Source: a virus. From it: DNA of 64,000 bases. The translations under genes were made by a program, and so were the position numbers. Under the pieces are notes generated by a model. It did not search any database and was not told the origin of the DNA. It saw nothing but the letters and a program-made list of their open reading frames with translations. Of this stretch, positions 1-64,000 are shown in pieces; position 1 is the stretch's first letter; each line of letters opens with the position of its first letter. The stretch lies in IMG/VR virus record IMGVR_UViG_3300012971_000018, positions 32,001 to 96,000 of that record. The stretch is one strand, 5' to 3'.

Positions 1-127
1 TCATATTCTGCTCCTTTCCTAAAGTGCAACTCCACTGCACCCGGGGGGTTCGGGTGCAGCAGGCTTGCGCTCTATGCTACTTCATATTGTGGTTTCTCCT
101 TTCCACGGCTCCGGTTAGCGAGACCGG

Positions 128-400
128 TTAGCCGACGTTTTCGAGCAGGCCGACGACCTCCTCGACGCTCTCCTTAACAGGGACCGCGCCTCCGTTCGGG
201 AACTCGACGCGGGTGCCGTTGCCCTCGGTCCGCGGCCGGACCGAGCGGATCGCGCCCGGGACGACGTAGAACGGCCGGGTAACCTCGGGCACCTCGGCCT
301 CGACGATCGTGGTAACCATCCGATCGTCCTCGCCCTCCTCGGTGGTGGTAACCGCGGCGCGAGCGTCGGACACGATCTGGGTAAGCTTAACGAACTTCAT
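128..400 (-). CDS. hypothetical phage protein
   Basis: 90-aa ORF, AAGGAG RBS upstream. Confidence 0.75.
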   Translation of the reverse strand: MKFVKLTQIVSDARAAVTTTEEGEDDRMVTTIVEAEVPEVTRPFYVVPGAIRSVRPRTEGNGTRVEFPNGGAVPVKESVEEVVGLLENVG

Positions 401-500
401 AAGATGCTCCTTGCATCTTCGGCGTCGGACAGGCCCGATCGCCGGGTGGGAACGCCACCGCGAGCCGGACCGTGTAGGTCCGGCCTCCGGTAGGGTCCGC

Positions 501-695
501 CTAGTCCTCCTTTGCCCAGATAAGGCTCGGGTCGCGCATTATGTCGGCGGCCGTCGGAGCAGCCTTTCTAGTCCCTTTGGTGGCCTCTTCCTTACGCGCG
601 GCATTGTCGGCCGCTCGTTTTAGTGTGCGGCCGATGGCCTTATAGAGGCGGTGCTCTGACTTTTCCGAGCGTCGCCGTGGTTTCTTGTATTTCAT
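501..695 (-). CDS. hypothetical basic protein
   Basis: 64-aa ORF abutting the upstream gene. Confidence 0.6.
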   Translation of the reverse strand: MKYKKPRRRSEKSEHRLYKAIGRTLKRAADNAARKEEATKGTRKAAPTAADIMRDPSLIWAKED

Positions 696-696
696 G

Positions 697-903
697 TCAA
701 TACTCCATTCCTCGTTCGGCGCGCTCGGCGCAGGAATTGCAGATGCCGTAGTCGGGGCGCAGCTTTACGCGCCGTCCGCACGACCCGCACTTCTTCCACA
801 CGCTCTCGCGCTGGACCTGCTTGTAGAAGTCGATGTCGTCCTGGTCCTCGATCTCGTACCAGCCGTAGTTGTCGTCGTAGAAACCGGGCATCTTAGTCTC
901 CAT
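697..903 (-). CDS. small zinc-ribbon protein
   Basis: CGSC...CNSC motifs. Confidence 0.75.
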   Translation of the reverse strand: METKMPGFYDDNYGWYEIEDQDDIDFYKQVQRESVWKKCGSCGRRVKLRPDYGICNSCAERAERGMEY

Positions 904-1624
904 ATTCGATCATAGCTTTACGCCAAGCGGCATTGCCTGGCGTAACAAGCTTCTGCTTCTGCTCCTCCCACCACCGCTCCTGGGCCAGCTTGCGCCACTG
1001 CTCGCGCTGTTTCGCAAGCCCCTCCTCCCGGTCCTTGCTCTTGCCCTTCTTGGGTTTGGGCTTCTGGGGAAGCTCCGCCATGGCGTCCAGCTTCGCCATC
1101 GCGACCGACATCGGCATGGCCCCGCGGGCCAGTTCGTGCTGGCCACCGTTTTTCTGCCGTCCCCGCCGTTCGATCTCGCGGTGGCTGGGGTTCTTGTGCT
1201 CCCACGAATGTTCGATCGCCGCGTCGAGGAACCGCTCGTCCAGGCCGTGGTCGCGGTAGCCCTTGCGGATACGATCGGCGTAGACCTTGGACGGCGGCAT
1301 AATCCCCGGCGAGGTCATAAGGTAGATTAGCGCCGGCCGACGCGCACCCTTCCACAGCAGGAGGATGTCCTCGGACTTGAAATAGAAACCGCCTGCGATC
1401 CCTTCGAACCGGTCCAGTTCCTGCTCGTCGCGGGCCGAGATTTCGTACAGCGCGCACGGGACCTCGGAGCCTGGGCAGAATTCCAGGTCCGCCACGCCGC
1501 GGAATACGAGCTTGGCGTTGGTTAGCATAAACTTGCCAAGCGACTTCGCGTCCGGGCAACGGCGGCGCATCGACGCCTTGTCGAGGTTGCCGCCGTAGGC
1601 GATGTAGAGCTTAGTCGGCTTCAT
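893..1624 (-). CDS. gamma-glutamyl cyclotransferase family protein
   Basis: YIAYGGNL and LDRFEG motifs; start reset to MKPTK (GAGG RBS). Confidence 0.85.
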   Translation of the reverse strand: MKPTKLYIAYGGNLDKASMRRRCPDAKSLGKFMLTNAKLVFRGVADLEFCPGSEVPCALYEISARDEQELDRFEGIAGGFYFKSEDILLLWKGARRPALIYLMTSPGIMPPSKVYADRIRKGYRDHGLDERFLDAAIEHSWEHKNPSHREIERRGRQKNGGQHELARGAMPMSVAMAKLDAMAELPQKPKPKKGKSKDREEGLAKQREQWRKLAQERWWEEQKQKLVTPGNAAWRKAMIEYGD

Positions 1625-2012
1625 TTCGTTCCTCGTTGAAGTACTCGGACAGAGCCTTAAAGTCGTCCGGGCCGATGCGGCCGAGATCGAACAGCACCTC
1701 GGCGAGGCCATCGTAGTCGCAGTCGTACACCCGCTTCATTTCGATGTACGTCTTGGGCTCGACGATCGTGCTGTTGTTGACGATTAACTGCCCGAGATTG
1801 CCATCGCGCTGCAACACCGGCTCGGTAACGCTATAATGGTGGGCCTGTCCCGCTCGGGTGTTTGCGGAACGCAGCCAGTCGTAGTCGCGGCCCTCGTGCC
1901 ACGTAAACCGCTGGCCCTTGGTAAGCACCGGGACCTTGTTCCAGTCTTTGGACCGGCGATCGGCCTGCGGGTTGGCGACGTCGCAGGTTAGTTCGAGAAC
2001 TTTCGTAGTCAT
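1611..2012 (-). CDS. hypothetical protein
   Basis: start reset to MTTKV, ATGA overlap with the upstream gene. Confidence 0.7.
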   Translation of the reverse strand: MTTKVLELTCDVANPQADRRSKDWNKVPVLTKGQRFTWHEGRDYDWLRSANTRAGQAHHYSVTEPVLQRDGNLGQLIVNNSTIVEPKTYIEMKRVYDCDYDGLAEVLFDLGRIGPDDFKALSEYFNEERNEAD

Positions 2013-2506
2013 AGTTGCACCTTTCGTTGGTTGGATACTGGTTCTCCGGTTAGTTGGTCGAAGCGCCACTGGCGGGGCGCGACCAGCACCCCGTCCTTCG
2101 GTGCGACCCGATGGCCCCACGGCCGGTTGGAGAGATAGACCCAGGCCGTAACCGGAAGCTGGATGTCGGCCTCGGCGATGTCGACCCGGAACGAGCGGCG
2201 CATCCGTTTGTAGAACCGCGGATGGCCTTCGAGCCGGTCGAGCGCGGCGAACGTCTCGCCGTCGACCTGCCAGATTTCTCCGGCGACGCGCCCGGACCCC
2301 AGTGCCAGCACAAATGGTGTATTGATCTTTGCGTGGAGCGAAGTGGGGTTGTACAAGAACGGAATTCCGCCGTTATCCGCAGAGGTCGTCATGCCATAGT
2401 TGGCGCCGTTCGACAGCGCGGTGCCGACGTACTTCGCCCCCTTAAGCAGATGGGAATTCCCTTCGCCGCGGCGAAGGGTCCCATACACGAATACGAGGTG
2501 GTTCAT
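2009..2506 (-). CDS. gamma-glutamylamine cyclotransferase (GGACT/AIG2-like)
   Basis: VFVYGTLRRGEGNSHLL and LDRLEGHP motifs. Confidence 0.9.
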   Translation of the reverse strand: MNHLVFVYGTLRRGEGNSHLLKGAKYVGTALSNGANYGMTTSADNGGIPFLYNPTSLHAKINTPFVLALGSGRVAGEIWQVDGETFAALDRLEGHPRFYKRMRRSFRVDIAEADIQLPVTAWVYLSNRPWGHRVAPKDGVLVAPRQWRFDQLTGEPVSNQRKVQL

Positions 2507-2736
2507 TTTTTCTCCTTTAACAATCCGATCTCGACCAGCCGAGCGATAAACCCGGCTTGGCTGCCTGTCCGCACGCGCTTCCCGGTTAGCCGGTAGGCGC
2601 GCACGGCCAGCTCGTTTACGAACATGTCGAGTGTCCGCTCCGGAGAGCGGGACTTGGCGCGCCAGAACTTAAGGACCGAGCGCGCCGTGGTCCCACTAAT
2701 CCGGGTGCCGTCTGGCGTAAGATACGTGCGCTTCAT
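2503..2736 (-). CDS. hypothetical protein
   Basis: ATGA-coupled on both sides. Confidence 0.7.
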   Translation of the reverse strand: MKRTYLTPDGTRISGTTARSVLKFWRAKSRSPERTLDMFVNELAVRAYRLTGKRVRTGSQAGFIARLVEIGLLKEKK

Positions 2737-3899
2737 CGGGGGTTCCTCCTTATGGGGGGATTGGGGCGGACAATGTCGGTCCCCGGGTAGTACCGGTTAC
2801 GCGCCGGATCGGTCCGCTCCAACGGGACCCGCTCCGCGGCTTCCGCCGCGGCGCGAGCCCGTCCGGCCTCGTCCTGGTGCGACGCGACCCGCGCCTTCCA
2901 GTACGCGCGATCCGCCTCGACCATTTCCAGCTTGGTCGCCAGACCATCGAGCGTAATTTCGAGCGGCAGCGCCTCGCCGGCATTAACCGTCGCCCGCCAG
3001 ACCATTCGGCCGCCACGCCGCAGGCCGGGAACCGGCGCCGCCGCGACCCCCATCTGCCGGAGCAGAGCAGGGAACGACGACCGGGTACCGCGGCCCAACT
3101 CGATCCGCAGTTCCTCGCCGGTTACGCCTTCCGGACGGGTAAACATCCGGTAGGCGGTGCGGTAGGTCTGGCGCGCGAATTGGGGCTCGACCACCGGGGT
3201 TAACCCGGCCTCGACGTCCTTTTTCGCCGTCGCCATTAACGCATGGCAGAAGTGGACCCAGGCGACGATCTTCTTGGCGTCGGTCGTACCGCTATGGTGG
3301 CGAAACTCGATCGTGCCGTGGTCGAGGTACGCCTTCCAGTTAAGCTTTACGAACCGGTCGACCCCGCCGCCGCCGCCTCGTTGCGGCATGGCCGCAATGA
3401 TGTCGTTAACGGTCGTGGCCCGACGCAGCCGGGCGATGTCCACACCCTGGACGGTCTTGCAGTAGCCATTGCCGGCCATCGGTCCACGCCTGCTCGGGGG
3501 CATGAACGTGTCCATAACCGGCTCGTACGCGATAAACAGTTCGGTTAGACGCCGCAGCGTCGCCACGCTCTGGTTCCGCGCATAGACATGGCAGTGCAGC
3601 CCGCACGTCCGGTTCGCGGTCGCACCCAGGCTGTTAAGCACCTCGCAGACGCGGTAGATGTCGTCGACCGCATGGAGCGGCGGGGACACGACCTCGTGGC
3701 TGGTGCGGCCCGCACCCGACACCGAGACGTCGGAGACCACCTTCCACTGGTTGCTGCGCTGGTGCGAGTAGCCGGCGTAAAAGCACGGGATGCCGGCGCC
3801 GTTAATAACGCTCGCGAGCCGGTCCCCGGTCATTATCCGACCGGCATTCGACGGCAGCAGACACTCGATCTCCACGCCAAAGTCGAGCGGGATCGTCAT
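2733..3899 (-). CDS. amidoligase (COOH-NH2 ligase type 2 family)
   Basis: FGVEIE, WKVVSDVS, EVVSPPL, TCGLHCHV, TIEFRHHSGT. Confidence 0.88.
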   Translation of the reverse strand: MTIPLDFGVEIECLLPSNAGRIMTGDRLASVINGAGIPCFYAGYSHQRSNQWKVVSDVSVSGAGRTSHEVVSPPLHAVDDIYRVCEVLNSLGATANRTCGLHCHVYARNQSVATLRRLTELFIAYEPVMDTFMPPSRRGPMAGNGYCKTVQGVDIARLRRATTVNDIIAAMPQRGGGGGVDRFVKLNWKAYLDHGTIEFRHHSGTTDAKKIVAWVHFCHALMATAKKDVEAGLTPVVEPQFARQTYRTAYRMFTRPEGVTGEELRIELGRGTRSSFPALLRQMGVAAAPVPGLRRGGRMVWRATVNAGEALPLEITLDGLATKLEMVEADRAYWKARVASHQDEAGRARAAAEAAERVPLERTDPARNRYYPGTDIVRPNPPIRRNPR

Positions 3900-4000: not shown

Positions 4001-4003
4001 AAG

Positions 4004-14044: not shown

Positions 14045-14842
14045 GTGGTCGTCGAGGGAACCCCGCTAGAGGACTATCTCGTCGAGTACGGTTTGGTTGT
14101 GAAGCGGGAGGACCTGTGCTGCCCCGACGGGCCACGGTTCTCGAAGGCGCGCGGCGTCTACGCACACATTAAGAAGCAGCCGACAAAGTCGATCGCCGTG
14201 CTCGACACCCTCCATTCGCGTGGAGGGTGGGCGGTCGCGCAGGCTTGTGCGCTGCTCGGCAAGCGCTGCCAAGTCTTCTTTCCGGTTCGGAAGTATGCCG
14301 ACGCCGTCCCTGGCCTGTACCAGCGCGCCGCGGCGAAGTTCGGTGCGGAGCTATGCCCTGTTCCGGCCGTACGCTCGGCGATCCTCTATTCGCAGGTACG
14401 GAAGACGCTCGGGGCCGACGTTTACCTAATGCCCAATGCGCTTAAGCTCGACGAGAGCATTTCCGAGACGGCAAGCGAAGTGCTGCGGACGAAGCTCCCG
14501 CCGGGGATATCCACCATGCTGGTCTCGGTGTCGTCGGGGACGATCGCGGCGGGGGTTATCTGTGGGCTGCGATCGGCGGGCTGGCGTGGGAACATACTTA
14601 TTCATTTAGGCTACTCCCGTTCGAAGGCGGGGTTGCTAAACTATATTCGGTCTCGACAGCCGTGGGGCGGCTATCCGCCGACAACAGCGATCGACGAGGG
14701 GTATGCTTATTCGGACGTAGCCCGGTCCGGCCAGACGCCACCGTTCCCGTGCGACCAGTACTATGATTTGAAGGCGTTTCGGTGGTGGGATGCGGTGGGC
14801 CGGGAGCGCTACAAGAGGGCCATATTCTGGAATATTGGCTAA
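14045..14842 (+). CDS. PLP-dependent enzyme (fold type II), putative DNA-linked amino-acid decarboxylase
   Basis: VKREDL...SKARG, SVSSGTIAAG, YYDLKA, FWNIG; location in modification cluster. Confidence 0.8.
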   Translation: MVVEGTPLEDYLVEYGLVVKREDLCCPDGPRFSKARGVYAHIKKQPTKSIAVLDTLHSRGGWAVAQACALLGKRCQVFFPVRKYADAVPGLYQRAAAKFGAELCPVPAVRSAILYSQVRKTLGADVYLMPNALKLDESISETASEVLRTKLPPGISTMLVSVSSGTIAAGVICGLRSAGWRGNILIHLGYSRSKAGLLNYIRSRQPWGGYPPTTAIDEGYAYSDVARSGQTPPFPCDQYYDLKAFRWWDAVGRERYKRAIFWNIG

Positions 14843-14843
14843 T

Positions 14844-15758
14844 ATGGCAACCAAGCATAAATATTCTTGTACTGATACTCATTGGACCTACGGCGCCGAG
14901 TTCGAGCTGGACGACTGGCCGCGAAACGAGCCGTTGCCGGATGGGATGCACATCGATTACGACTGGTCGCTGGTAAATTCCAACGGCGTGGCGGTCGACG
15001 GACCGGGCGAGCTGTACCATCTGGGCGGCGAAATCCTGGCCCGTCCGTCCAATACGGTTAGCGGGGTCGCCGACCAGCTTGCGACGATTATGCACAAGTG
15101 GCCGCAGATTACGATTAACCACCGGACCGGGGTCCACATTCATATTAGGGTGCCCGGGCTGCGCGACGACCTGGAGAAGCTAAAAACGCTCCAGCGCAAT
15201 ATCCACGCCTGGATGCCGATACTGCTCCCGCTGGTCGAGCCGATCCCGCTTCCCCGGCCGGGGTGCGGCCCGGTGTGGAAGGGGGAGATTTGGTGCTACA
15301 AGAGGTGGAAGAAGCAGCACCAATATCTGCTGGAACCGTGGCGGGTAGCGCGCCAGATGGCGGCGCGAACCCCGCGGGAATTCTTCGAGGCCGAGGCGCT
15401 CCACGTTCCGTCCGGGCGGGTGCCCTGGGCGACCCGCCCGCGAGCTTGCGTAAACCTCCGCCAACTCCTGCAAACCGATACGATCGAGTTCCGGCACTTC
15501 CCGGGCAGTACGTCTCCTCACATTGTGAAGAACTGGGGGCTGTGGTGCCAGTTATTTTTGGAGCTTGCTTTGGAGCTTGTTCTGGGCGAGGACATTCCGT
15601 ATGATTTGACGGAATTCCTAAAAGGCTGGCAGACGCCGAAGTTCCCTCCGTACGACCATTGGTTGGAGACCGGTTATCGGTTTACCTCGCGGCGCTACCA
15701 TTCGAAGGACGAGGTCCGGGCGAACATAAAGACGTGGTTGGGAAGGAAGCGACCATGA
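14844..15758 (+). CDS. amidoligase-family protein in the modification cluster
   Basis: TYGAEFE, GGEILARP, TGVHIHI, TIEFRHFPGS. Confidence 0.75.
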   Translation: MATKHKYSCTDTHWTYGAEFELDDWPRNEPLPDGMHIDYDWSLVNSNGVAVDGPGELYHLGGEILARPSNTVSGVADQLATIMHKWPQITINHRTGVHIHIRVPGLRDDLEKLKTLQRNIHAWMPILLPLVEPIPLPRPGCGPVWKGEIWCYKRWKKQHQYLLEPWRVARQMAARTPREFFEAEALHVPSGRVPWATRPRACVNLRQLLQTDTIEFRHFPGSTSPHIVKNWGLWCQLFLELALELVLGEDIPYDLTEFLKGWQTPKFPPYDHWLETGYRFTSRRYHSKDEVRANIKTWLGRKRP

Positions 15759-16405
15759 AGCGGTTGGCGATCGTTACCGGGGCGGCTGGGGGCATTGGCA
15801 AGGCCGTTTGCGATAAGTTCCGGCAAGATGGTTGGGATGTCGTTGGCGTCGATATCGAGACCGACTGCGGGATTGGGAGATACGATGTGTCCGATCCGGG
15901 TGCAGTGCGCGAGCTTTTCCAAAAGATTAAAGGGGGCCGGAGCGAGAGGAAGGCGTTGGTAAACTGTGCGGGAGCGATCGAGTTCAATTCGATCCCCGAC
16001 ACTACTCTCCAAGACTGGAACCTTATGCTCCAGCATAATCTAACGACGGCGTTCGTTATGACCCGCGAGTTTGCCAAGTTCGGGTTGGGGACGATTGTAA
16101 ATGTTAGCTCGGTTAACGCGACCCTTTCGAGCGAGCACCGGGTAGGCTATGCGGCGGCGAAGGGCGGCATCGAGGCGTTTACCCGCATTTCGGCAACCCA
16201 GCTCGGCCCTAATATCCGGGTTAATTGCGTGGCGCTGGGGCCGATCCAGACCCGACAGGCAAACGGCCTGTCGCGACGGAATGTGCTGGGCCGGATCGGC
16301 TTGCCGGTCGAGGCGGCGGACCCGATCGTGTGGCTCTGTGGCGATGGAGCGTCGTACATTACCGGAGCAACGCTGGCAGTGGATGGGGGCTACGGGCTTA
16401 TTTAG
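15755..16405 (+). CDS. short-chain dehydrogenase/reductase
   Basis: TGAAGGIG, NCAG, VSS, YAAAK, VDGG. Confidence 0.92.
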   Translation: MKRLAIVTGAAGGIGKAVCDKFRQDGWDVVGVDIETDCGIGRYDVSDPGAVRELFQKIKGGRSERKALVNCAGAIEFNSIPDTTLQDWNLMLQHNLTTAFVMTREFAKFGLGTIVNVSSVNATLSSEHRVGYAAAKGGIEAFTRISATQLGPNIRVNCVALGPIQTRQANGLSRRNVLGRIGLPVEAADPIVWLCGDGASYITGATLAVDGGYGLI

Positions 16406-16414
16406 GAGGGCCGA

Positions 16415-16771
16415 ATGGTGGTGTCTGCTCGGTGGGCAAATCGAGAGGATGCTCAACTAGATGGATACGGTATATTCTGGTGCGATGGGAAATCGCATCG
16501 TGCCCATCGTTGGATTTTTGAGAGGTGTGTTCGTAAGCTTAAGCCTTATGAGCAGGTTCTACATAAATTCGATAACACATGCTGCGTTAATTTAGACTGT
16601 TTGTATGTGGGAACCCACGCGGATAACATGCGGGACCTTCGCGAGCGGGGTAATGCTAAGGGCATTCCAAAGAGTGAGGAATGGAAGCGAAAAGCTCGTG
16701 CTGTCCCACAAGAAGTCCGCCGTCGTGCGGCTTTATTGGCTTGGAGACGTCGCCATGCAAAGCGAACTTGA
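16415..16771 (+). CDS. free-standing HNH homing endonuclease
   Basis: AHRW...VLHKFDNTCCVN...GTHADNMRD; lower GC. Confidence 0.8.
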   Translation: MVVSARWANREDAQLDGYGIFWCDGKSHRAHRWIFERCVRKLKPYEQVLHKFDNTCCVNLDCLYVGTHADNMRDLRERGNAKGIPKSEEWKRKARAVPQEVRRRAALLAWRRRHAKRT

Positions 16772-18137
16772 TTGGATTAACCAGGACACCGCTAAGGAAA
16801 CGTACAATTACTACATGCGTACCGACCCGTCTATGCGCGAGATACTCGGCCCTATCGAGGAAGTATACGATGAGCACACAGGTCGGAAAATGCGTAGGCG
16901 GTTAGCAAAAGTGGCGATGATCCGAGGCTCAAAAGACGGTAAGGAAACTATAATCTATCTAGACCCGCTGCCACATGTTAGACTTGACAAGGCCAAGGAT
17001 TTGCAAGGTTGGTACAGTGGAAAAACAGACGGTGCTACTCGTGGGCAAAGAGACCGTCCTTGTATGACGGATGCTATCCTTACCCAACCCTATGGGGGCA
17101 CTTGCGAGGTCCAATGTGGGTTTTGCTACGTGAATTCTGGGTTTAGAGGATATCGCGGAGCTGGATTGACTACAGTTCCAATGGGATATGGAACGCATGT
17201 GCGCGCGCAGCTTAGTTCTATGAAGGTTGCTACGGCTGGATATTTTACGAGCTTTCACGATCCTTTCAACAGTTTGGAGGAGTACTACCACAACACCCAG
17301 CAGGGAGCCCAGGCATTTGTTGATTATGACCTTCCAATATTCTTCCTATCGCGGCTGTCCTATCCGGAGTGGGCGATAAACCTGCTACGTACTAACCCTT
17401 ACAGCTACGCGCAGAAATCGATCAATACGCCGGACCCCGAGGATTGGAAGAAGCTAAGCCCGGGTGCGCTGCCGCTCGCCGACCACTTCGCGGAGATTGC
17501 CAAGCTGCGCGCGGCCGGCATCTACGTGTCGATCCAGGTTAACCCCGTCGTCCCCGGCATTACGACCCACGAGGAGGTGGAGCAGCTATTCGAGAAGCTC
17601 GCCGCGGCCGGTGCCAACCACGTAATCGTTAAGTTCGTCGAGGCGAGCCACGCCTGGGTCGGCGCGATGGTGGAGCGGATGGCTACCCGGTTCGGCGCCA
17701 ACCGGGCGGCGCATTTCCGCGAGCTGTTCGTCGAGAATTCCTGCGGCGGGCAGAAGACCATAGCCGAGGAGTACCGGCGCGAGGGCCATACGCGGTACCG
17801 TAAGCGGGCTACTGAATTGGGGATGACCTATGCGTTGTGCTACGAGTACACGCGCACGCCCGACGGCTGGAAGTCGATGGGACCGGAGTTTCTAACGTCG
17901 GAGCAGTGCCACGGCCACCGGGTGCCGATGCATGTGCGACGAATGGGCAGATTTAGTCCGCTCTCGGTATGTCCTCCATCGGGGTGCCTGTCGTGCGCCG
18001 ACGAGAGCGGGAAAGGAAAATGCGGTTCGACCCTGCTCGGAGCGGCGAAGGCACTACGGATATCCGATTTGCGCAAGGATTGGGATGGAGACCCGGAGCA
18101 TGTTAGGACCCGCCGAGTTCGGGCGCCAGCTAATTAA
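16755..18137 (+). CDS. radical SAM enzyme (putative DNA-base isomerase)
   Basis: CEVQCGFC (CxxxCxxC); start MQSEL after GGAG; extra C-terminal Cys cluster. Confidence 0.85.
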   Translation: MQSELDWINQDTAKETYNYYMRTDPSMREILGPIEEVYDEHTGRKMRRRLAKVAMIRGSKDGKETIIYLDPLPHVRLDKAKDLQGWYSGKTDGATRGQRDRPCMTDAILTQPYGGTCEVQCGFCYVNSGFRGYRGAGLTTVPMGYGTHVRAQLSSMKVATAGYFTSFHDPFNSLEEYYHNTQQGAQAFVDYDLPIFFLSRLSYPEWAINLLRTNPYSYAQKSINTPDPEDWKKLSPGALPLADHFAEIAKLRAAGIYVSIQVNPVVPGITTHEEVEQLFEKLAAAGANHVIVKFVEASHAWVGAMVERMATRFGANRAAHFRELFVENSCGGQKTIAEEYRREGHTRYRKRATELGMTYALCYEYTRTPDGWKSMGPEFLTSEQCHGHRVPMHVRRMGRFSPLSVCPPSGCLSCADESGKGKCGSTLLGAAKALRISDLRKDWDGDPEHVRTRRVRAPAN

Positions 18138-18876
18138 GACCGGAGACCTCGATCCGGTCTACATCGCCATTAACGGTGCAAAGCTCCCCCACAAGCAACT
18201 GGCCAAGCTCCTGTTCGCCTATTGGTGTTTCTACCATCTGGGCCTCGCGGCGTGGCTATCCGAGCAGAAACACTATTGGCGATCGATGCGGACCGCGGCG
18301 GAGAACGTAACCGAGACCCCGTACGGCGGTCCCTGGCCGCGCGGTACGGAGCGTCGCCACTTCCGCGGTTACCTGGCGGTGCGTGCGGTGGACATCCTGT
18401 CGAGGAAGTCCCCCGAGGCGTATGTCGAGGCTCTGTTGAAGATGCGGACCGTGGCGGAGATTATGGGCGCTACCAGCCAATGGCCGCTGTTTGGACCGTG
18501 GATCGGCTACAAGATTGCGGATATGGTCGATCGGTGTCTTGGCTCTCCGGTCGAGTTTACCCCGGACGTCTGCCTGCTCTACAAGGAGCCCCGGGCCGCA
18601 CTCGATCTTATCCCCGGGGCGGTTTCGGCCGAGCAGAAGCTGGTCGATTTGCTGGGCGAGCTGGACGACCAGAAAGCCCCGCCAACGGGCGACCGGGCGC
18701 TGGGCTTCGCCGAGGTCGAGACCGTGCTGTGTAAGTGGAAGTCCTACCGTAGCAAGCATTATTTCATTGGGAAGGACATCTACGAGGTGCGCCACCACTT
18801 GGCCCATTGGGGTGCGGGCACGATGCTAAAGGCCATGCCGGCGGTGCCGTTCATATTCCGGGGGCGGATGCCATGA
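18100..18876 (+). CDS. amino acid:DNA transferase (aGPT-Pplase2 family)
   Basis: GDLDPVY, RGTERRHFRG, FGPWIGYKIADM, EVETVLCKWKS. Confidence 0.8.
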   Translation: MLGPAEFGRQLIKTGDLDPVYIAINGAKLPHKQLAKLLFAYWCFYHLGLAAWLSEQKHYWRSMRTAAENVTETPYGGPWPRGTERRHFRGYLAVRAVDILSRKSPEAYVEALLKMRTVAEIMGATSQWPLFGPWIGYKIADMVDRCLGSPVEFTPDVCLLYKEPRAALDLIPGAVSAEQKLVDLLGELDDQKAPPTGDRALGFAEVETVLCKWKSYRSKHYFIGKDIYEVRHHLAHWGAGTMLKAMPAVPFIFRGRMP

Positions 18877-19436
18877 TCGTTAATGTGCGCGGCGGGAGCG
18901 GAAGTGGCAAGACCCATGTGGTGCGCGAGCTAATGAATGGCGGCAGGCCGGTCTCGCTCTATGGGGTGCTAGGGATAAAGTATCCCGAAGCCTATCGGGT
19001 CTCGCTCCCAGGCGTAACGCAGCCCCTGCACATTATCGGACCCTACACGACGAACGTCGGGGGATGCGACAGGCTGTCCTACGATAAGATCATTCCTCTG
19101 CTGGAGAAGTACGAGAAGCGGGGCCACGTCCTGTTCGAAGGTCTGCTCGTATCGGACAACTACGGCATTATCGGAGAGTGGCTTACCAAGCGCGGCCACA
19201 ACGCGCTTATCGTGTTCCTGGATACTTCGCTGGCAGTATGTCTGGAACGGCTGCGCATCCGTTCGGGCTACGATGCAGACTTGCGGAAGCCGCTAACGAC
19301 GGTGGCCATGCGGTACGAGACCATAAAGCGCGCGAAGGCAAAGTTCGAGAAGGAAGCCAAGGTTAGCCTGCTCGAAGTTTCCTCGACAAGCGCGGCGGAC
19401 CAGATACACCAATGGATAATTGACAATGATAGATGA
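18873..19436 (+). CDS. P-loop kinase, putative 5-hmdU DNA kinase
   Basis: NVRGGSGSGKT, GGCD, LFEGL; adjacent to the transferase. Confidence 0.8.
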   Translation: MIVNVRGGSGSGKTHVVRELMNGGRPVSLYGVLGIKYPEAYRVSLPGVTQPLHIIGPYTTNVGGCDRLSYDKIIPLLEKYEKRGHVLFEGLLVSDNYGIIGEWLTKRGHNALIVFLDTSLAVCLERLRIRSGYDADLRKPLTTVAMRYETIKRAKAKFEKEAKVSLLEVSSTSAADQIHQWIIDNDR

Positions 19437-20301
19437 ACAACTGCATTGGTTTACGCACTGGGTATCCGAGCGCGAGAAGGTTCGGATCGCCAAGCTGGGC
19501 GGCGCCCGGCCGCCGTGGACGAACGACCCGATTATCGCCAAGTACCGGTTCTGTAACGTCCGGCGGAAGGACGATCGCGTCTCGCGCTGGTTAATCAAGA
19601 ATGTCCTTACCGCGGAAATCTTCCACCGTGTCGGCCCCAAGGCGTTTATGGAGTTTACCGCGTTCTGCCGGTGGAACAATTGGCCGCCGTCGATCGGTGC
19701 GGTCTTAGAGCGCGATCTTTTGCGGCCTAGCATCGATTGGGGTGCCGTCGTGCGGGTCCTGCAAGATCGCAAGCGGCGCGGGGAGAAGGTGTGGACGGGT
19801 GCCTACGTGGTCTATGCCGATGCCAAGACCGACAAGGCGGAATACGTGGCCAGTGTCGCGCGGGCCGTCGGCGAGATGTGGGACCGGCTACAGACCGATA
19901 CCCGGATTGGATATCGCCAGCGGGTGTGGGAGACGCTAACCGATATCCGTGGCATGGGCTCGTTCATGGCTGGGCAGATCGTCGACGATTGGACGTGGAC
20001 ACCGTTGCTGTGGCTATCGCGCGATCTCTACGAATGGGCGCCGCAAGGCCCGGGGTCGCTGCGGGGGCTAAACCGGATTATCGGCCACCCGCTTACCCAG
20101 AGCATAATTATGAACGACTGGATGGCCCATCTTAACGCTTGCCGCAGGCACATAATCGAGACGCTTGGCAAGGACTATCGCAACCTTACGGCGCACGATG
20201 TGCAGAATTGCCTGTGCGAGTTCGACAAGTACATGCGGGTTAAGAACGGGGAAGGCAAGCCGCGGTCGACGTACCAGCCGGAGACGGGGTATGTGGTATG
20301 A
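19420..20301 (+). CDS. aGPT-Pplase1 family protein (thymine hypermodification)
   Basis: ERE...PWTNDPIIAKYRFCNVRRKDDRVS, GPGSLRGL, QNCLCEFDKY. Confidence 0.88.
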   Translation: MTMIDEQLHWFTHWVSEREKVRIAKLGGARPPWTNDPIIAKYRFCNVRRKDDRVSRWLIKNVLTAEIFHRVGPKAFMEFTAFCRWNNWPPSIGAVLERDLLRPSIDWGAVVRVLQDRKRRGEKVWTGAYVVYADAKTDKAEYVASVARAVGEMWDRLQTDTRIGYRQRVWETLTDIRGMGSFMAGQIVDDWTWTPLLWLSRDLYEWAPQGPGSLRGLNRIIGHPLTQSIIMNDWMAHLNACRRHIIETLGKDYRNLTAHDVQNCLCEFDKYMRVKNGEGKPRSTYQPETGYVV

Positions 20302-20501
20302 GTAAGAAACCTGTCGGCTACTTCGTCTGGACCCGCCGTAATGGCAGGCTGTCCCCCCGGAAGTATGGCGAGGACTTCCACCGTGCCGGTCGCAAGGATG
20401 GCACAGAATACGACCACGATGCCCCACCGGCTTATCCACTAACCGAAGCCGAGTGGGGTATGTCTTTGGACGAGCTGGCAAGGAGATATCCGCATGGGTA
20501 G
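20298..20501 (+). CDS. hypothetical protein
   Basis: ATGA-coupled ORF. Confidence 0.55.
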   Translation: MSKKPVGYFVWTRRNGRLSPRKYGEDFHRAGRKDGTEYDHDAPPAYPLTEAEWGMSLDELARRYPHG

Positions 20502-20892
20502 CCAAGCAGGACGCAAAGTACAGAGCTGGGTTAGCACCCCGCAGGGCTGTTTTCTTAAGGGGCTCCTGCATGCTCTTGGGAACCGGGGATGGATGGACAT
20601 GGGGCTGCGTGGAAGTGCCTATAACGAATACGTCTACAGGCATTACGCTCGCCTCGTGCCTTACCACCAGGATTATTGGGAACGTCCGCGGACCAAAAAG
20701 AGCATTGTGGGTCGCGCTATGACCACGACAAGATCGCACCATGCTTCGAGGGAGAATGCATTCGAAAATGACTATACTGCGCCATACATGGGATTGGTCT
20801 TTAATCTGTTGGAGCGCGACAAGCCCTGGGAACGTGCGGAGCTGGACGCGCGTATCGCGCGTATCGCTGCGATAGCAGCGAGGGCGGCATGA
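20494..20892 (+). CDS. hypothetical protein
   Basis: fills the gap, overlaps neighbouring genes. Confidence 0.45.
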   Translation: MGSQAGRKVQSWVSTPQGCFLKGLLHALGNRGWMDMGLRGSAYNEYVYRHYARLVPYHQDYWERPRTKKSIVGRAMTTTRSHHASRENAFENDYTAPYMGLVFNLLERDKPWERAELDARIARIAAIAARAA

Positions 20893-21446
20893 CCCCGTTG
20901 GAGCGCGTAATTGCGATCCGGACCGGCGGCGGCACCGAGCGCGCCCACGGCATTCGCCACCATGGCTCCTATTCGGTCGCCAGCCATACATGGGGCGTTC
21001 TAACGCTGGTCTACGTGCTGTGGGGACCCGAGTTCTTTGCCCGGGTCGCCGCCGCGGTAACGTTCCACGACGTTCCCGAGGCTTGGGTCGGCGACATCCC
21101 GGCGCCGACGAAGCGTTACAATATGTCGGTTAAGCTCGCGGTCGACCAGATGGACCAAGCCGTGCTTAAGCGGCTCGATCTGCTTACGCCGTACGTGGGT
21201 CTTAGCTTAGAGGACAAGGCCAGGATTAAGGCCGCGGACATGCTGGAGCTGTATCTGTGGGCGGCGGAGGAAGTCGCGGGGGGCAACAGGCACGCCGCCT
21301 GTCTTATGCGGGAGCTAATACGCTATTTCGGCGAGCAGAGGATGCCGGACGAGTTCTACCCGATATGGACGGAGCTTGCCACCGGCGGCAGCGTAGAGCA
21401 CGCGAGCGACGGCCTTATCTACGAGATAAACAAGAAAGCGGAATAG
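20889..21446 (+). CDS. HD-domain nucleotidase (YfbR-like)
   Basis: SVASH, FHDVPEAWVGDIPAP, KAADMLE. Confidence 0.85.
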   Translation: MTPLERVIAIRTGGGTERAHGIRHHGSYSVASHTWGVLTLVYVLWGPEFFARVAAAVTFHDVPEAWVGDIPAPTKRYNMSVKLAVDQMDQAVLKRLDLLTPYVGLSLEDKARIKAADMLELYLWAAEEVAGGNRHAACLMRELIRYFGEQRMPDEFYPIWTELATGGSVEHASDGLIYEINKKAE

Positions 21447-37341: not shown

Positions 37342-37560
37342 GGTTCGGTGTGGCGAGGTGGGGTGAGGCAGGTCTGGTGAGGTTAGGTGGGATAGGGCGA
37401 GGTAAGGTCTGGTGGGGTGAGGTATGGTCCGGTACGGTGAGGCTGGGTAGGGTACGGTGAGGTTAGGTGGGATAGGGCGAGGTAGGGTTGGGTGCGGTAT
37501 GGTGAGGCGAGGTTAGGTCCGGTCAGGTTCGGTGTGGTCCGGTAGGGTAAGGTTTGGTAT
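37342..37560 (+). repeat. (GGTNN)n pentamer tract, about 43 units
   Basis: ggttc ggtgt ggcga ggtgg ...; 29-bp direct repeat at 37376 and 37456. Confidence 0.9.
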
Positions 37561-40854: not shown

Positions 40855-42228
40855 GTGCTAATCCCGGTTAACGACCTGCTCGACCTCCATTGTGGCGACT
40901 GCCTCGACGTGTTGCCAACATTACAGCCGGACAGCGTGGACGCCTGCATTACCGACCCGCCCTATGGGCTGGAGTTTATGGGCAAGGAATGGGACGCATT
41001 TGGCAAGGAAGCAAACCATCGAAGTTTCGAACGTAGTGGTTTTGGGCTTTCAAGATTTGGGGCATGGACACCAACTGCGTCTATGGACGGTGTAGCCAAG
41101 GTTCGGCGTGGAAATCTTGGTTTTCAAGAATTCTCCAAGAGATGGGCGACAGAAGTTTATCGTGTGCTCCGGCCCGGCGCGCACCTCGCGGCATTCGGCG
41201 GAACCCGAACCTACCATCGCATGGCGTGCGCGATCGAGGATGCCGGCTTCGAGATACGCGATTGCTTAATGTGGTTGTACGGGACGGGATTTCCGAAAAG
41301 CCACGATATTAGCAAGGCGATCGATGCGGCGGCCGGGGCGCAAAGGGAGATCGTAGGTCAACGCAAGAAGCTCGAAAGCTATGGACCAAACGAGGTTTAT
41401 GGCGACGGCCCGGACCACGGTGGTATTCAATTAATAACCGCTCCCGCAACCGATGCCGTTCGCCAATGGGAAGGCTGGGGCACCGCTCTTAAGCCCGCAG
41501 TGGAGCCGATCGTGCTCGCCCGGAAGCCATTGAGCGAGCCAACCGTAGCAGCAAACGTCCTGCGGTGGGGAACGGGGGCGCTGAATATTGATGAATGCCG
41601 CATTGCAACTAATTGGGCCACCGATCCGACAAGACGTGGATGGCAAGGATGCGATGAGGCGGGAACAAATCAGGTTAATGGATTGGGATTCAAAAATCCG
41701 AATAATTTAGGCCGCTGGCCCGCCAACGTTGTCCACGACGGCAGCGAGGAAGTGGTAGGGATGTTTCCGAGTACGAAAGGGGGTGTAGCTGTTAGACGTA
41801 ATGGCGGGGGCGGCAAGATAGGCGGAAGAGGAATATATGGCGGCGCTGCCGGCGATCCTGATGATGATATCGGTTATGGCGACTCCGGCTCCGCCGCCCG
41901 CTTCTTCTATTCCGCCAAGGCCGATGCAGACGACCGGCTCGACTCGAAGCACCCGACCGTAAAGCCGATCGACCTGTTGCGATGGCTCGTGCGCTTGGTT
42001 ACCCCGCCGGGAGGATTGGTAATCGATCCGTTTGCCGGCACCGGCACGACGGCGTCGGCGTGCTTGCGGGAAGGCTGTTGCTGCATCTTAATCGAACGCG
42101 AGCAGGAATACGTGGCGGACATTAAGTACAGGTTTACCGGGTTGGGCAAGCTGCGCCGCGGCACGCCCAACGAGACGGCCATGGACAACCTGCGCGACGT
42201 GCGACTGTCTCGGTATTCACAGACTTAA
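40855..42228 (+). CDS. N6/N4 DNA methyltransferase, beta class
   Basis: TDPPY, HPTVKP, DPFAGTGTT. Confidence 0.92.
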   Translation: MLIPVNDLLDLHCGDCLDVLPTLQPDSVDACITDPPYGLEFMGKEWDAFGKEANHRSFERSGFGLSRFGAWTPTASMDGVAKVRRGNLGFQEFSKRWATEVYRVLRPGAHLAAFGGTRTYHRMACAIEDAGFEIRDCLMWLYGTGFPKSHDISKAIDAAAGAQREIVGQRKKLESYGPNEVYGDGPDHGGIQLITAPATDAVRQWEGWGTALKPAVEPIVLARKPLSEPTVAANVLRWGTGALNIDECRIATNWATDPTRRGWQGCDEAGTNQVNGLGFKNPNNLGRWPANVVHDGSEEVVGMFPSTKGGVAVRRNGGGGKIGGRGIYGGAAGDPDDDIGYGDSGSAARFFYSAKADADDRLDSKHPTVKPIDLLRWLVRLVTPPGGLVIDPFAGTGTTASACLREGCCCILIEREQEYVADIKYRFTGLGKLRRGTPNETAMDNLRDVRLSRYSQT

Positions 42229-42322: not shown

Positions 42323-42348
42323 GGGGGACCGTAGTACGACGGTCCCCC
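42323..42348 (+). other. hairpin upstream of a head-region gene
   Basis: ggggaccgt...acggtcccc. Confidence 0.5.
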
Positions 42349-42377
42349 AACTATTTTATAGAACCGGAGGATTTCCC

Positions 42378-50942: not shown

Positions 50943-51392
50943 GTGGCAAATATCGGCAAATGGAATGCACCTAGTGCTACCCTTACGGTGCTCTCGACCG
51001 GGCTTAATTCGCTCGCCAACAATACCATGTCGGCGGCTTCCTCGAACATTGCAAACCAGACCAATCTCGACATCTATGTGGACATCGAAATTGCTCTTGC
51101 CTCGTTGTCGCCGACCTCCGGTGCATATGTGGCGCTTTACATTCTAGAGGCGGTAGATGGTTCCAACTTTCCGGCACAGTCCGACGCCGATCTCCGACTA
51201 ACCGGCACGCAGTTGTTGTGTGTTGTGCCAATAGGCACAACTGCCAGCACGGCGCAGCGGGTTGCCGTGCGCAACGTCGTAATCCCGCCCGGCCTGTTCC
51301 AGATTAAGCTCGATAACCAGACTGGCGTGTCGCTTAACGCCAGCACCAATACAGTTAAGTTTAACGCCTACAACGTAAACCTCAATGGCTAG
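50943..51392 (+). CDS. putative virion structural protein
   Basis: beta-strand-like composition; precedes LamG gene. Confidence 0.6.
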   Translation: MANIGKWNAPSATLTVLSTGLNSLANNTMSAASSNIANQTNLDIYVDIEIALASLSPTSGAYVALYILEAVDGSNFPAQSDADLRLTGTQLLCVVPIGTTASTAQRVAVRNVVIPPGLFQIKLDNQTGVSLNASTNTVKFNAYNVNLNG

Positions 51393-52152
51393 AAATTTCA
51401 ACGGCACGAGCGACGTTATCGATATCGGCACGCCAGCTCCGCTGAACATCTCTGCCAACTCCCAGATCGCTGTTTCGGTGTGGATGAATCCGACAGCCCA
51501 GCCTTCGTCGGGCTCCGATGCTGACATTTCTGGCAAGGGGTTTGATGGGACCACCACATCCTATGAAATGAAAATTTCGGGTTCTGGGGCAGGAAACCTT
51601 ATTTTCTTCGGTTCATTTTCTGGTGGCGGTCACGGCGCAGGCAGTGGTGGTCTCGCTACAACAAATGGGGTTTGGACCCATCTCTACGGTGATTACGATG
51701 GCGCCACTTGGCATCTGTATGTCAATGGCATCTTGCAAGGCAGTTCGACCGACGCCATCGGCCCGCAGAACAATACGATGCGCAGCAGTATCGGCGCGCT
51801 GTGGCTGAACGGCTCGTTTGGCAACTGGTTCAATGGTCGTGTTGCACATCGCTGCGAGTGGAACCAGGCGCTGACCGCACCGGAAGTCAAGCAACTCGCG
51901 CTCGGGCGTTCGCCGTTGACGATCCGCCCAGGTCGTATACTCGGCTACTGGCCGCTGTCCATGGGATATGGACAGCCGGCGATCGACCGCGGTCCGTTCA
52001 ATCTTGGTAGTGGTACCATTACTGGAACCAAGCTCGCGCCTGATCCGCCGCTCACTACAATTAGTCAGATTAACTTGCTCGATTTGGAAGCACCATTTCC
52101 ATTTGTTATGGTAGCGCCACCGGCGCTTTTGATGGCCCAAATCGTGCTCTAA
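51385..52152 (+). CDS. LamG/ConA-like lectin domain protein
   Basis: FNGTSD, SVWM, WTHL..YDG...LYVNG, WNQALTAPEV. Confidence 0.85.
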   Translation: MARNFNGTSDVIDIGTPAPLNISANSQIAVSVWMNPTAQPSSGSDADISGKGFDGTTTSYEMKISGSGAGNLIFFGSFSGGGHGAGSGGLATTNGVWTHLYGDYDGATWHLYVNGILQGSSTDAIGPQNNTMRSSIGALWLNGSFGNWFNGRVAHRCEWNQALTAPEVKQLALGRSPLTIRPGRILGYWPLSMGYGQPAIDRGPFNLGSGTITGTKLAPDPPLTTISQINLLDLEAPFPFVMVAPPALLMAQIVL

Positions 52153-61000: not shown

Positions 61001-62891
61001 AGTCGCTGGCGCGAAAGGACTGGTTAAGGCGATCCAAGGTCTCCGCGAAGTTTCCGGCGAAGCCCATTCCCAGGCGCGGGCCAAGGTGCCGTACTCGCAC
61101 GACGCGGCGGACGATTACGCCGACATTCTCCAGTCCTTGCAGGAGCTAATTAAGCTGCTCGAAGACGATCCCGACGAGGTTATTAACGCCGAGCCGGCCG
61201 ATCTCGACGAGGAGGAGGAACCCGGGGAGGATAGCCTGGGGCATGACTCGGCGCTCGCAATGGACCGCATCCCGGACCGCCACAAGTCGCTCTTCCTTGC
61301 GCGACGGGTCGGTATCCAATTTGCTTTCGACGATAACGAGAGCCAGCGTTCGCTCGACAAGGACGGCCGGCTCCACGTCGCGATATCGCCGATTAGCAAG
61401 GCCAACATCTGCCCCTATATCGGCCACGAGATACCGGGCTACCAAGAGCTGGGGCTGGAGGCCGACAAGGTCTACAAGCTGCTGCGCGATCCGCGCGAGC
61501 TGGCCAAGGCGGTTCCGACCTTTAACGGAATTCAAATCCTGCAAAAGCACATCCCGGTAAACTCCGAGGACCACCAGCCCTACGACGTTATCGGCGCGAC
61601 CGGGACCGACGCCAACTTCGCGCACCCGTACCTAACGAACTCGCTGCACATCTGGCCGCAGTTTGCCATTAACGATATCGACAAGAAGGTAAAGCACCAG
61701 CTTAGTTCCGCCTATCGGTATACGCCGGACATGACCCCTGGGACGTACGAGGGCGAGCCGTACGATGGCGTTATGCGGGACATCGTCGGCAACCACGTCG
61801 CACTGGTCGAGGAAGGCCGGGCCGGCGACGACGTTGCGGTTAGCGATGCGCTGCCCGACGAGCTGCGCATGCTGGAGTTCGATGTTAACGCCTACGAATA
61901 CGGTCGTGGGCTGCGGATGGCGCTCGACGAGGCGACGTTCCGCGAGGAAGACCATAAGCGGGACCAGGGTGGCAAGTTCTCCTCGACCGGTGCCGGCGGT
62001 GGGGCGGCGGCGAAGACCGAGGCCAAGACCGAAACCAAGACCGCGGAGAAGCCGGCCGAGAAGGCCGGGGGCGAGGCGCCCACAGCCCAGAAGTCGAATG
62101 GCGCCGCCAAGGAAGCAAGTACCGAGCCCGAGACCAGGGGCGAGCAGCTTCGTAAGAAATACAAGACCGAGGCGAACACGCCTAAATCCGCTGGCAAGGC
62201 GGGAACGCACCCCGGCAAGGGCTATTCGAAGAACGCCAAGATCGACGACTACGGCACCATCCAGACCGACAATGTCGACGATGCGGCGCGTGCCTTGTGG
62301 GAGAACAAGAAAGTCGAGCTTACCCAGGTAAAGCAGGTTAGCACGCTAATCGACAAGCTCGGCAAGATCGCAGCCCAATGGGAGAAGCACACCGGTTCGA
62401 AGAAGAAGTTCAATTTGTGCAACGTTAGCGTTAAGGGCACCAACCTGTTCTGCGCCGAGAGCCAGGGCATCCCGCGCGTTCGCATGCCGCAGTTTAAGGA
62501 CAATGCCCACGCGCTGGCGTTCGTCGACTATCTAAAAGCCAAGGGCATAAAGACTGACGCCGGCACCGAGGTCGCCGCCAATCTTAAGGCAACGCAGGAC
62601 GAGCTGGGCGCCACCAACGTTGCCGGGATTATGAAGGTCCTGCGCTCCGGCAACGATCCCACCGATCTGGCGGGACGGCCGCTTGTTATCTCGCGCGACG
62701 GCTATGTCGTAGACGGCCACCACACCTGGGCCGCGAAGCTCGGGATCGATGTGGCAGATGGCAAAACGGTCGATGGCAAGAAGATGAACGTAGAGCGTAT
62801 TAATCTGCCGATTATTGAAATCCTGTACGAGGCCAACAAGTTTACCGGCAAGTCCGGCCGCAAGGCGATGGACAGGAGGCGGTACCTATGA
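58074..62891 (+). CDS. multidomain head polyprotein: RMF-like, NUDIX, HiPIP-like, DUF2213, ParB-like
   Basis: NPYP..WRDGF; [22 protein letters not shown]; CQDC..C..CC; [26 protein letters not shown]; DGHHTWA. Confidence 0.85.
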
Positions 62892-63946
62892 GGGTCGATC
62901 CGATTGCATATGGGCTTGGCCTCGCGCTTGCGATGGACCGGAAGGTTTGCAACATCTTCGGGGAATGTGTCGAGCAGAGCGAGGAGGCGGGCCGCAAAGA
63001 GGTCCAGCAGGCCAGGAAGGGGGAAAAGCAGCGGGAGAAGGAAGCCACGAAATATTTGAAGGGCAGGGACGCTCTCGCCCCCGAGCAGCAAAAGCCATTG
63101 GTAACGTGGAAGGTCGGCGACCCCGAGGATACCGAGCGCGTCGCGCGCGAAGTCGGAGTGCCCCCCGAGAAGCTCCACGAGATGGCGCGCAACTTCCACA
63201 ACTACAAGGCCCACGATGCCGAGGAGACCGTCGTGCCCGCAGGCGGTGCCAATGCCGAGACCCATGGCGCCGCCCATGCGACCGAGCGTGCCGAGATCGC
63301 CGGCAAGACCGGCATTACCGGCGGTCCGCCGACGCGCCATCCGACCGACGGCGGCGGTGCGGGTCTTACGGCGACGGGGCACATGAAAGTCCCGGACAAC
63401 ATCGATTGGCCGAGCAAGGATGCGGAGCCGGACCCACACGAAGAAGAGAAAGCCGGGATCGCCGCCGAGTGGCGGCGAAACAAGCGGGCCGCGGCGGATC
63501 GCGAGAGCGAGCTGTTGCGCGAGCCGGGTGAGGACCAGCGTCGGGAGCTAACGCACAACGAGTTGGCCGAGCTGTACAATCTTTACCATCTCGCTCGCAC
63601 GGCGTTGGCGGGGGAAAGCCCATCCCAGTACGATCGTAAGCTCTGGGCCACCAAGGAGTTTGCAAAACTCCACCCGGATATCCCTTCCAAATGGATATAT
63701 CTCGGGTTCGAACAATCCGGGCCGGGCAGGGACAGCATTGCTGGGGACGCCAAAGCGTTTCCTTCCTGGAAGGAGGCGCATACGGCTGCGGTCCAGTTAG
63801 CACGGCAATTGGGACGCGAAGTTGGTATCGAGCGGACCAAGGAATATGGCAAAGAGGTTTATTTGGTGCACCATCTGCCAAATCCTGGTAATCGCTACGG
63901 GTTCGAATTAAGGGTCGAGGTGGTAAAGCCAACCGACCCCCTTTGA
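62888..63946 (+). CDS. modular head-region hypothetical protein
   Basis: ATGA-coupled; begins [10 protein letters not shown], resembling [10 protein letters not shown] in the upstream polyprotein. Confidence 0.7.
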
Positions 63947-64000
63947 GAATTAGCAAATAGCTACTGCCACAAGGCAGAGCAATCTATCCGTTCCAGTTGG

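Follow-up and report, generated by a model that had tools for sequence, protein, structure and literature searches.

Purge of the three-base word TCA/TGA from the genome of an uncultured phage with thymidine hypermodification genes

Why should a phage genome with a GC content of 60% have lost about three quarters of its copies of one three-base word? The question is raised by a stretch of 64,000 nucleotides (the window), which covers positions 32001–96000 of the 111,906-bp virus record IMGVR_UViG_3300012971_000018, a genome with direct terminal repeats that is rated complete. In the window, the trinucleotide TCA and its complement TGA, referred to here together as TSA (S being C or G), are the two rarest of the 64 trinucleotides, with raw counts of 150 and 232, respectively. 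An earlier reading of the letters of this DNA (the original prediction) had noticed the loss of TCA/TGA together with an excess of TTA/TAA, and had presented it as a C-to-T footprint in the TCA context, left either by mutational scarring or by selection against the word. We found a depletion that is real, very strong and genome-wide, with the word lost through every silent change open to it, and we consider it probable that selection on the DNA itself has removed it.

Size and extent of the depletion

Within the window, TCA was present at 0.21 and TGA at 0.29 of the expectation from base composition, and at 0.25 and 0.30, respectively, of the expectation from a first-order Markov model. TTA was in excess (1.47 by composition and 1.25 by the Markov model), as was TAA (1.33 and 1.21), whereas GC-rich relatives hold these two words at only 0.2–0.5 of expectation. 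Low values of TCA/TGA were found in each 4-kb bin of the window and in each 8-kb bin of the 111,906-bp genome, with no gradient seen along it. Thus, the loss and the excess that had been described for the window were borne out for the whole genome (0.21–0.30 of expectation for TCA/TGA), and the earlier hand count for positions 8101–8400, with 0 TCA/TGA and 8 TTA/TAA, proved to be exact.

The depletion did not follow from codon or amino-acid usage. Synonymous codons were permuted inside each gene 200 times, and the word was counted at the four classes of codon junction (the hyphen marks the junction). NTC-A was seen 146 times against 636 expected (ratio 0.23, z −32), NNT-CA 41 times against 248 (0.17), NTG-A 151 times against 429 (0.35) and NNT-GA 113 times against 481 (0.24). 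A ratio near 1 under such control would have spoken against the claim; the four ratios lay between 0.17 and 0.35, with z from −16 to −32, and the shuffled ratio per 8-kb bin was 0.19–0.35. Outside the called genes the ratio for TCA/TGA was 0.29, and for avoidable sites the observed-to-expected ratio was 0.21 on one strand and 0.20 on the other, which agrees with the earlier view that the effect lies on both strands and at the level of the DNA.

The imprint is visible in individual codons as well. TCA accounts for 1.3% of the serine codons of the phage, as opposed to 11–12.5% in two relatives. The stop codons comprise 37 TGA, 38 TAA and 38 TAG, in line with the remark that many of them are TAA or TAG, while TGA makes up 46–53% of the stops in relatives. 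In the whole genome 687 copies of TSA are left, and 45% of them lie within ATGA/TCAT; among the TGAs of the coding strand, 130 are formed by a methionine or start ATG followed by A, as had been noted of many surviving copies, and 37 are stop codons. Methionine followed by I, M, T, N or K was found at 0.76 of expectation, compared with 0.93 and 0.86 in relatives, and the purge has affected the protein sequence only weakly.

Escape routes and neighbours of the word

The way in which the word was lost can be followed in the codons that precede an A. Before A, leucine CTG drops to 2% (from 39%), CTC likewise to 2% (from 27%) and valine GTC to 8% (from 50%); CTA reaches 42% and CTT 40% before A, and ATA also increases there, which requires a C-to-A change. 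Codons that end in T account for 2.4% ahead of CA and 3.4% ahead of GA, compared with about 18% in other contexts. In the related phages G001 and G002 the share of T-ending codons is 0.26–0.32 whatever follows, with no conditioning on the next base.

At the NNT-CA and NNT-GA junctions the word can be lost silently only by changing the T, and a C-to-T change is non-synonymous. Both were depleted 4–20 fold. For A-TCA the depletion was 19.5 fold where the escape goes through the T and 19.9 fold where it goes through the C; the corresponding values for the T route and the middle-base route were 12.8 and 19 fold for C-TCA, 6.6 and 11 fold for G-TCA, and 8.8 and 12 fold for G-TGA. The TCA codon, which escapes through its A, was 4–6 fold below other NCA codons. 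The fold depletion is therefore similar for any of the three escape positions and varies with the 5′ neighbour, so that the presence of the word counts and not the path of its loss. TCG (1.46) and TCC (1.07) are not depleted, thus there is no general TC effect, and the excess of TTA/TAA is what escapes biased towards transitions would produce (before A, CTG to CTA and CTC to CTT). The per-site odds ratios of 4–32 correspond roughly to a scaled selection of 1.5–3.5; selection of this kind would be weak at each site, enough to act against codon preference and insufficient against the protein sequence.

The title reading of the original prediction, a C-to-T footprint by mutational scarring, is therefore not upheld: loss by C-to-T only, as a deamination scar predicts, is not what was found, the classes that depend on the T being depleted 4–20 fold and TCG and TCC being normal. 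As to the genes that had been proposed as a check, searches of the complete phage turned up neither a CDA-fold (cytidine deaminase) deaminase (PF00383) nor a C5-methyltransferase (PF00145), other deaminase folds not having been searched. The alternative that had been offered, selection against a word that a host defence would recognise or that the phage's own T modification would cover poorly, stands in its general form, as every escape route has been used.

The bases on both sides of the word modulate its loss. With in-frame methionine codons taken out, the ratios by the base 5′ of TCA were 0.11–0.12 for C, 0.15–0.20 for A, 0.19–0.23 for G and 0.33–0.39 for T, and by the base 3′ of it 0.06–0.10 for G, 0.10–0.15 for C, 0.26–0.38 for A and 0.34–0.35 for T. 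V-TCA-S is thus the worst context and T-TCA-W the best tolerated. At the extreme, CTCAG (CTSAG) was seen once against 77 expected, and GTSAC stood at 0.14. All 16 NTCAN contexts were below 0.8, and 12 of them at or below 0.26, in a graded manner. Coding-strand and template-strand copies of TCA had the same neighbour profile, and this symmetry excludes both an RNA-level cause and a preferential attack on the exposed non-template strand. Toxin RNases, out-of-frame stops and a missing tRNA were accordingly rejected, TCA and TGA being equally low on the sense strand and the depletion being present in all frames and in non-coding DNA.

The same avoidance was met in arrays of GGY-NN guide RNAs of the VIPR type, which lie on the plus strand at 30324..30483 and 37342..37560 of the window and, past its end, at genome positions 99893–110206. 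The 34 arrays comprise 425 units, all on the plus strand, and Y is T in 93% of the units. Where the two following bases are GA, Y is C in 45% of the units, compared with about 4% of the other units (Fisher p = 2e-7); the arrays thus evade TGA by a T-to-C change, GGC replacing GGT before GA. CA is one of the rarest NN values, with 15 units. The guide system itself was considered as a cause of the purge and rejected, as the published system has no need of a flanking motif and no self-targeting has been reported for it.

Lineage, thymine modification and restriction sites

About 160 related phage and prophage stretches were compared, and their TSA ratios lay between 0.88 and 1.71. They include 23 relatives by portal or polymerase (0.88–1.40), 80 by the major capsid protein at 56–80% identity (0.89–1.69), two whole related genomes (1.16 and 1.28), 52 bacterial loci, mostly alphaproteobacterial prophages (0.97–1.71), and seven cultured phages that carry a kinase for 5-hydroxymethyldeoxyuridine (5-hmdU) in DNA (0.99–1.53), namely the M6-like LKO4, Ab18, Bordetella CN2, Rhizobium TM26, the ViI-like SKML-39, phiRSL1 and Bacillus SBSphiC. 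The kinase is absent from four complete 110-kb relatives. The purge is therefore confined to the lineage of this phage, and since none of the related stretches has it, the phage DNA appears to be acted on by some factor whose target is no longer than three base pairs. As the phages that hypermodify thymine are not depleted, thymine hypermodification as such is not the cause. Searches of IMG/VR with the portal, polymerase and capsid proteins returned nothing nearer than 80% capsid identity, most proteins being at 40–60%; capsid homologues of 82–84% identity were found in Logan and ENA assemblies. In the literature, we found no published trinucleotide purge in phages and no anti-phage DNA deaminase with a TCA context.

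A different short-word purge was observed in three of the polymerase or capsid relatives from IMG/VR (L019, L021 and L073), in which CCAC/GTGG is absent or nearly absent, with no copy against 192 expected in 18 kb of one, none against 102 expected in 9 kb of another, and 7 against 75 expected in the third. CTAG, CTAA and ACTA are also scarce in them.

A cluster of thymidine hypermodification genes, itself purged of TCA/TGA, occupies positions 14045..23767 of the plus strand. It encodes a pyridoxal-phosphate enzyme, an amidoligase, a short-chain dehydrogenase/reductase (SDR), a radical S-adenosylmethionine enzyme resembling spore photoproduct lyase, an amino acid:DNA transferase (PF18724), a 5-hmdU DNA kinase in two parts (PF18748 and PF18723), an HD hydrolase, a DUF3310 protein and an intein-bearing thymidylate-synthase homologue. 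The profile scores were 3.4e-15 for PF00303, 1.8e-94 for phrog_5131, 1.7e-44 for PF18723, 8e-11 for PF18724 and 1.2e-183 for phrog_9252; PF18748 scored 8.4e-5, which is below the family cut-off. A family A DNA polymerase fused to a uracil-DNA glycosylase (UDG) domain, and also bearing an intein, lies at 25371..28838 on the plus strand, and fusions of this type have been described from phages with T-modified genomes. The inteins are thus located in the thymidylate-synthase homologue (21447–23336) and in the polymerase (25371–28838), and the thymidylate-synthase homologue also contains an HNH endonuclease domain. The minus strand carries, at 893..3899, a second amidoligase and two gamma-glutamyl-cyclotransferase-like (GGCT) genes, which G001 and G002 lack and which may add to the base modification. 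Together with the SDR gene, the amidoligase and GGCT genes suggest a thymine side chain longer than that of phage M6. Neither TGT/DpdA nor QueC was found in the phage.

The gene set places the phage beside M6, ViI and phiW-14 (PMC6449724; Lee et al. 2018, PMC5889632), with which it shares the defining genes, that is, a thymidylate-synthase-family homologue of the deoxyuridine monophosphate (dUMP) hydroxymethylase, the 5-hmdU DNA kinase and the amino acid:DNA transferase, besides the radical S-adenosylmethionine and pyridoxal-phosphate enzymes and the PolA-UDG fusion. It differs from this type in its extra amidoligase, SDR and GGCT genes and in its scarcity of TSA, as none of the seven cultured phages is poor in the word; its modification is predicted from the genes. 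In M6, ViI and phiW-14 the hypermodified T is found mainly in TG/TC, that is, in TS (Flodman et al. 2019, PMC6449724). TSA consists of two overlapping TS contexts and is the sole trinucleotide with TS on both strands, its two thymines being separated by two base pairs in the major groove. In TWA the geometry is the same but TS is missing, and this word is enriched and not depleted. The thymines of TSA are in a 1,3 arrangement, comparable to that of 5′-GNC cross-link sites.

The same genome bears a heavy imprint of classical restriction avoidance, despite its T hypermodification genes, and nucleases have plainly left their mark on it. Ten 6-bp palindromes have no copy in it (CTCGAG, CAGCTG, GAGCTC, CTGCAG, GGATCC, GGGCCC, AGGCCT, AGATCT, CACGTG and ACTAGT), the first of them against 60 expected. 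ACGCGT was seen twice against 15 expected, CTAG stood at 0.55 of expectation, and GANTC at 0.14–0.39 (GAATC 0.14, GACTC 0.39). The avoidance of GANTC fits an alphaproteobacterial host. The bacterial capsid-gene copies closest to the phage are mostly in prophages of Alphaproteobacteria (such as Bosea, Mesorhizobium, Rhizobium, Caulobacteraceae and Acetobacteraceae). The capsid family is common as prophages in soil Alphaproteobacteria, the groups just named and Methylobacterium among them, and occurs in some Burkholderiales too (L124–L178), a distribution that points to a likely host range for the group.

Only one gene is not purged, a plus-strand gene at 51385..52152 for a lectin-like protein (Laminin_G_3 / ConA-like), with a low GC content at third codon positions (GC3) of 0.59 and 21 TCA/TGA seen against 21 expected. 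No relatives of it were found in IMG/VR, and it was probably acquired recently by horizontal transfer. A predicted N6/N4 DNA methyltransferase gene (40855..42228, plus strand), absent from G001 and G002, is half purged, with a ratio of 0.43, as is a tail-fibre-like gene with 0.39. Such less purged modules are likely recent imports. Across genes, a higher GC3 goes with a lower TSA ratio (rho −0.30, p = 0.01), which looks like gradual amelioration of imported DNA.

Next to the methyltransferase, at 42234–43415 on the same strand, is a gene for a protein of 393 amino acids that is almost without full-length relatives. A segment of about 40 residues in it shows 60–80% identity to otherwise unrelated proteins with DUF2213 or NUDIX domains, and may be a capsid-targeting sequence. 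A restriction-modification pair of the phage itself was considered for these two genes and rejected, as the neighbour shares its segment with head proteins (DUF2213, NUDIX) and has no nuclease signature.

As annotated in the window, the gene set is that of a tailed phage with a contractile tail, including sheath, baseplate, portal, Mu-F-like head protein, major head protein, terminase and endolysin genes. It has replication genes of its own (DnaB-like helicase, primase, clamp, clamp loader, a single-strand-binding-protein-like gene, UvsX-like recombinase, SbcCD-like nuclease and RusA), and many genes have no assigned function. No tRNA genes were found in the phage. Only one sequencing run, a soil metagenome of 2017 and probably the source of the record, carries the stretch, as contigs that are identical to the window at about 9x word depth and offer no usable polymorphism; no RNA sequencing runs carrying it are listed.

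Possible causes of the purge

From the depletion, its independence of the escape route, its strand symmetry, its dependence on neighbours and its restriction to one lineage, all directly observed, we infer that natural selection on the DNA itself has probably purged T-S-A from this phage lineage, the best candidate for the agent being a DNA-acting enzyme with a short target. Selection would be weak at each site and act everywhere. Each copy of TSA would be slightly costly, silent changes at any of its positions would remove it where the protein permits, and the word would persist where the protein fixes it (methionine followed by a codon that starts with A, and some stops) and in recent imports. 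The cost would arise if TSA were the core target of a DNA-acting enzyme met in the host range of the phage, perhaps a nuclease or nickase that cuts frequently, a glycosylase, or a deaminase if selection acts against the damage it does, with a low probability of a hit at any one site.

In the variant that we favour, the action of the enzyme would be tied to the hypermodified thymines of the phage, either because the mark incompletely covers TSA or because a modification-dependent nuclease reads paired marks. Nucleases that attack T-hypermodified phages do exist (END nucleases), and such phages escape them poorly (PMC12191111). A preference for TCA is also on record for an enzyme, T4 endonuclease IV (PMC1635256, PMC2095790). 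A more tentative proposal, which we regard as somewhat less likely than not, is that an enzyme or chemical process reads nothing more than T-S-A, and in its most interesting version reads or is provoked by paired hypermodified thymines that face each other across the major groove.

Where phage genomes avoid a word, restriction enzymes with sites of 4–8 bp are usually taken to be the cause. The purge resembles the avoidance of palindromes in that a short word has been removed on both strands by silent changes and in that the set of words depends on the host. As with Type II systems, which act on both strands of duplex DNA in a lineage- or host-specific manner, the flank profiles of the two strands are equal and the roughly 160 related loci are undepleted. 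On the other hand, a classical Type II site has 4–8 bp and is nearly eliminated, whereas the word here has a core of 3 bp, graded neighbour effects, a 4–5 fold reduction and 687 persisting copies. As the palindromes were eliminated and these copies persist, the cost of each TSA would be small and cumulative, and not one lethal cut each. The purge is thus motif avoidance of a new form, limited to three base pairs, genome-wide, partial and found in one lineage.

Several points weigh against selection by such an enzyme. No agent was found, and the phage is uncultured. The 687 remaining sites mean that the agent cannot cut every site efficiently. To our knowledge, a target of 3 bp has not been described for any restriction or modification-dependent enzyme of bacteria, nor does any enzyme have TSA as its target. 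TS is present in 7 of the 10 absent palindromes, which argues that TS marks, if present, are poor protection in this phage. The guide arrays retain GGT-CA in 15 of 15 units although GGT-GA is avoided. The fragment G002 has the kinase and yet is undepleted in TSA, as are other T-hypermodifying phages. Moreover, on the basis of equilibrium composition, selection is not fully distinguishable from a hot spot specific to the word that mutates all three positions, although such a hot spot would need the same kind of agent.

Among the other explanations, we rank a hazard of the phage's own chemistry second, and place erosion by a CRISPR system, a nuclease of the phage and a deamination scar lower. 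In the first of these, which we regard as unlikely, a TSA with both thymines hypermodified or activated would be harmful whatever the host, as the extended side chains could clash, keep the modification from being completed, or now and then cross-link or break the DNA. No trinucleotide but TSA has TS, the modified context of other phages (PMC6449724), on both strands, whereas TWA is enriched. The phage has modification genes that G001, G002 and M6-like phages lack, and the depletion shows neither a gradient along the genome nor a strand bias, all of which suits such a hazard. Yet seven other T-hypermodifying phages and G002 are undepleted, the TS rule is carried over from other phages, and the lectin-like gene bears its 21 sites with no evident harm.

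Repeated escape from a host CRISPR (clustered regularly interspaced short palindromic repeats) system with TCA as its protospacer-adjacent motif (PAM) seems improbable to us. It would account for a motif of 3 nucleotides lost from both strands by all routes, for a weak effect per site with many sites persisting, and for a trait specific to a lineage or host. The depletion reaches 10–100 fold in some contexts, however, whereas published PAM depletion is not known to come near such values, and the bases on both sides of the word matter.

Similarly improbable is a TCA-preferring nuclease made by the phage against host or rival DNA, from which the phage would protect itself by offering few targets. 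A model for it is T4 endonuclease IV (DenB), which cuts single-stranded DNA with a preference for 5′-TCA-3′ (PMC1635256, PMC2095790). Its example shows that a core preference for TCA, with a limited share of sites cut, is within the reach of an enzyme. The many genes without known function leave room for such an enzyme. A six-frame search of the phage with T4 DenB, which has no Pfam family, gave nothing at E <= 10. T4 protects itself through modified C and not by word avoidance, and the dC1–dC6 tract rule of DenB is not mirrored in the phage, which shows no C-specific downstream effect, G and C flanks being alike. In addition, the purge is deepest at GC-rich flanks, while easy strand opening would predict the reverse.

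A neutral scar, in which a TC-specific cytosine deaminase or the deamination of methylated C turns TCA into TTA on either strand, is very improbable. It is suggested by the excess of TTA/TAA, and the values for CTA and CTT before A are about those expected from CTG-to-CTA and CTC-to-CTT transitions alone. Against this, the NNT junctions are depleted although C-to-T is non-synonymous there, the increase of ATA requires C-to-A, the guide arrays escape through T-to-C, TCG and TCC are untouched, and the phage has neither the PF00383 deaminase nor the PF00145 methyltransferase. The APOBEC3 footprint of papilloma- and polyomaviruses, commonly put down to mutation and avoidance together, is similar in that a T-C word is scarce and its C-to-T product in excess. 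It differs in that the phage has lost TCA only and not TCN, has escaped at all three positions and has no PF00383 deaminase, and we know of no bacterial counterpart of APOBEC3 with a TCA preference on phage DNA.

Finally, that the pattern is the sum of ordinary restriction sites containing TCA/TGA, many such sites being avoided by the phage and CTSAG and GTSAC being among its scarcest words, or an artefact of assembly or sequencing, is scarcely credible, as all 16 NTCAN contexts are lowered, the avoided 6-mers reach zero while TSA persists, synonymous codon choices in intact genes are impossible for an artefact, and the contigs of the source run agree with the window without differences.

We therefore return to selection against TSA as the probable cause, and to what it would mean for this phage. 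The escape-route test separates selection from deamination scars inside a single genome, with no need of relatives. The purge it describes reverses codon preference 4–32 fold, in one lineage only, and a genome-wide purge of three base pairs implies a factor far less specific than any known bacterial restriction system. If the version with paired thymines is true, it would mean either a modification-dependent defence of a new kind or a hazard inherent in hypermodified DNA, to which the phage has responded by rewriting its whole genome to avoid TSA. The pattern thus offers a testable handle on which thymines get marked, and on what hosts or chemistry do to densely marked DNA.

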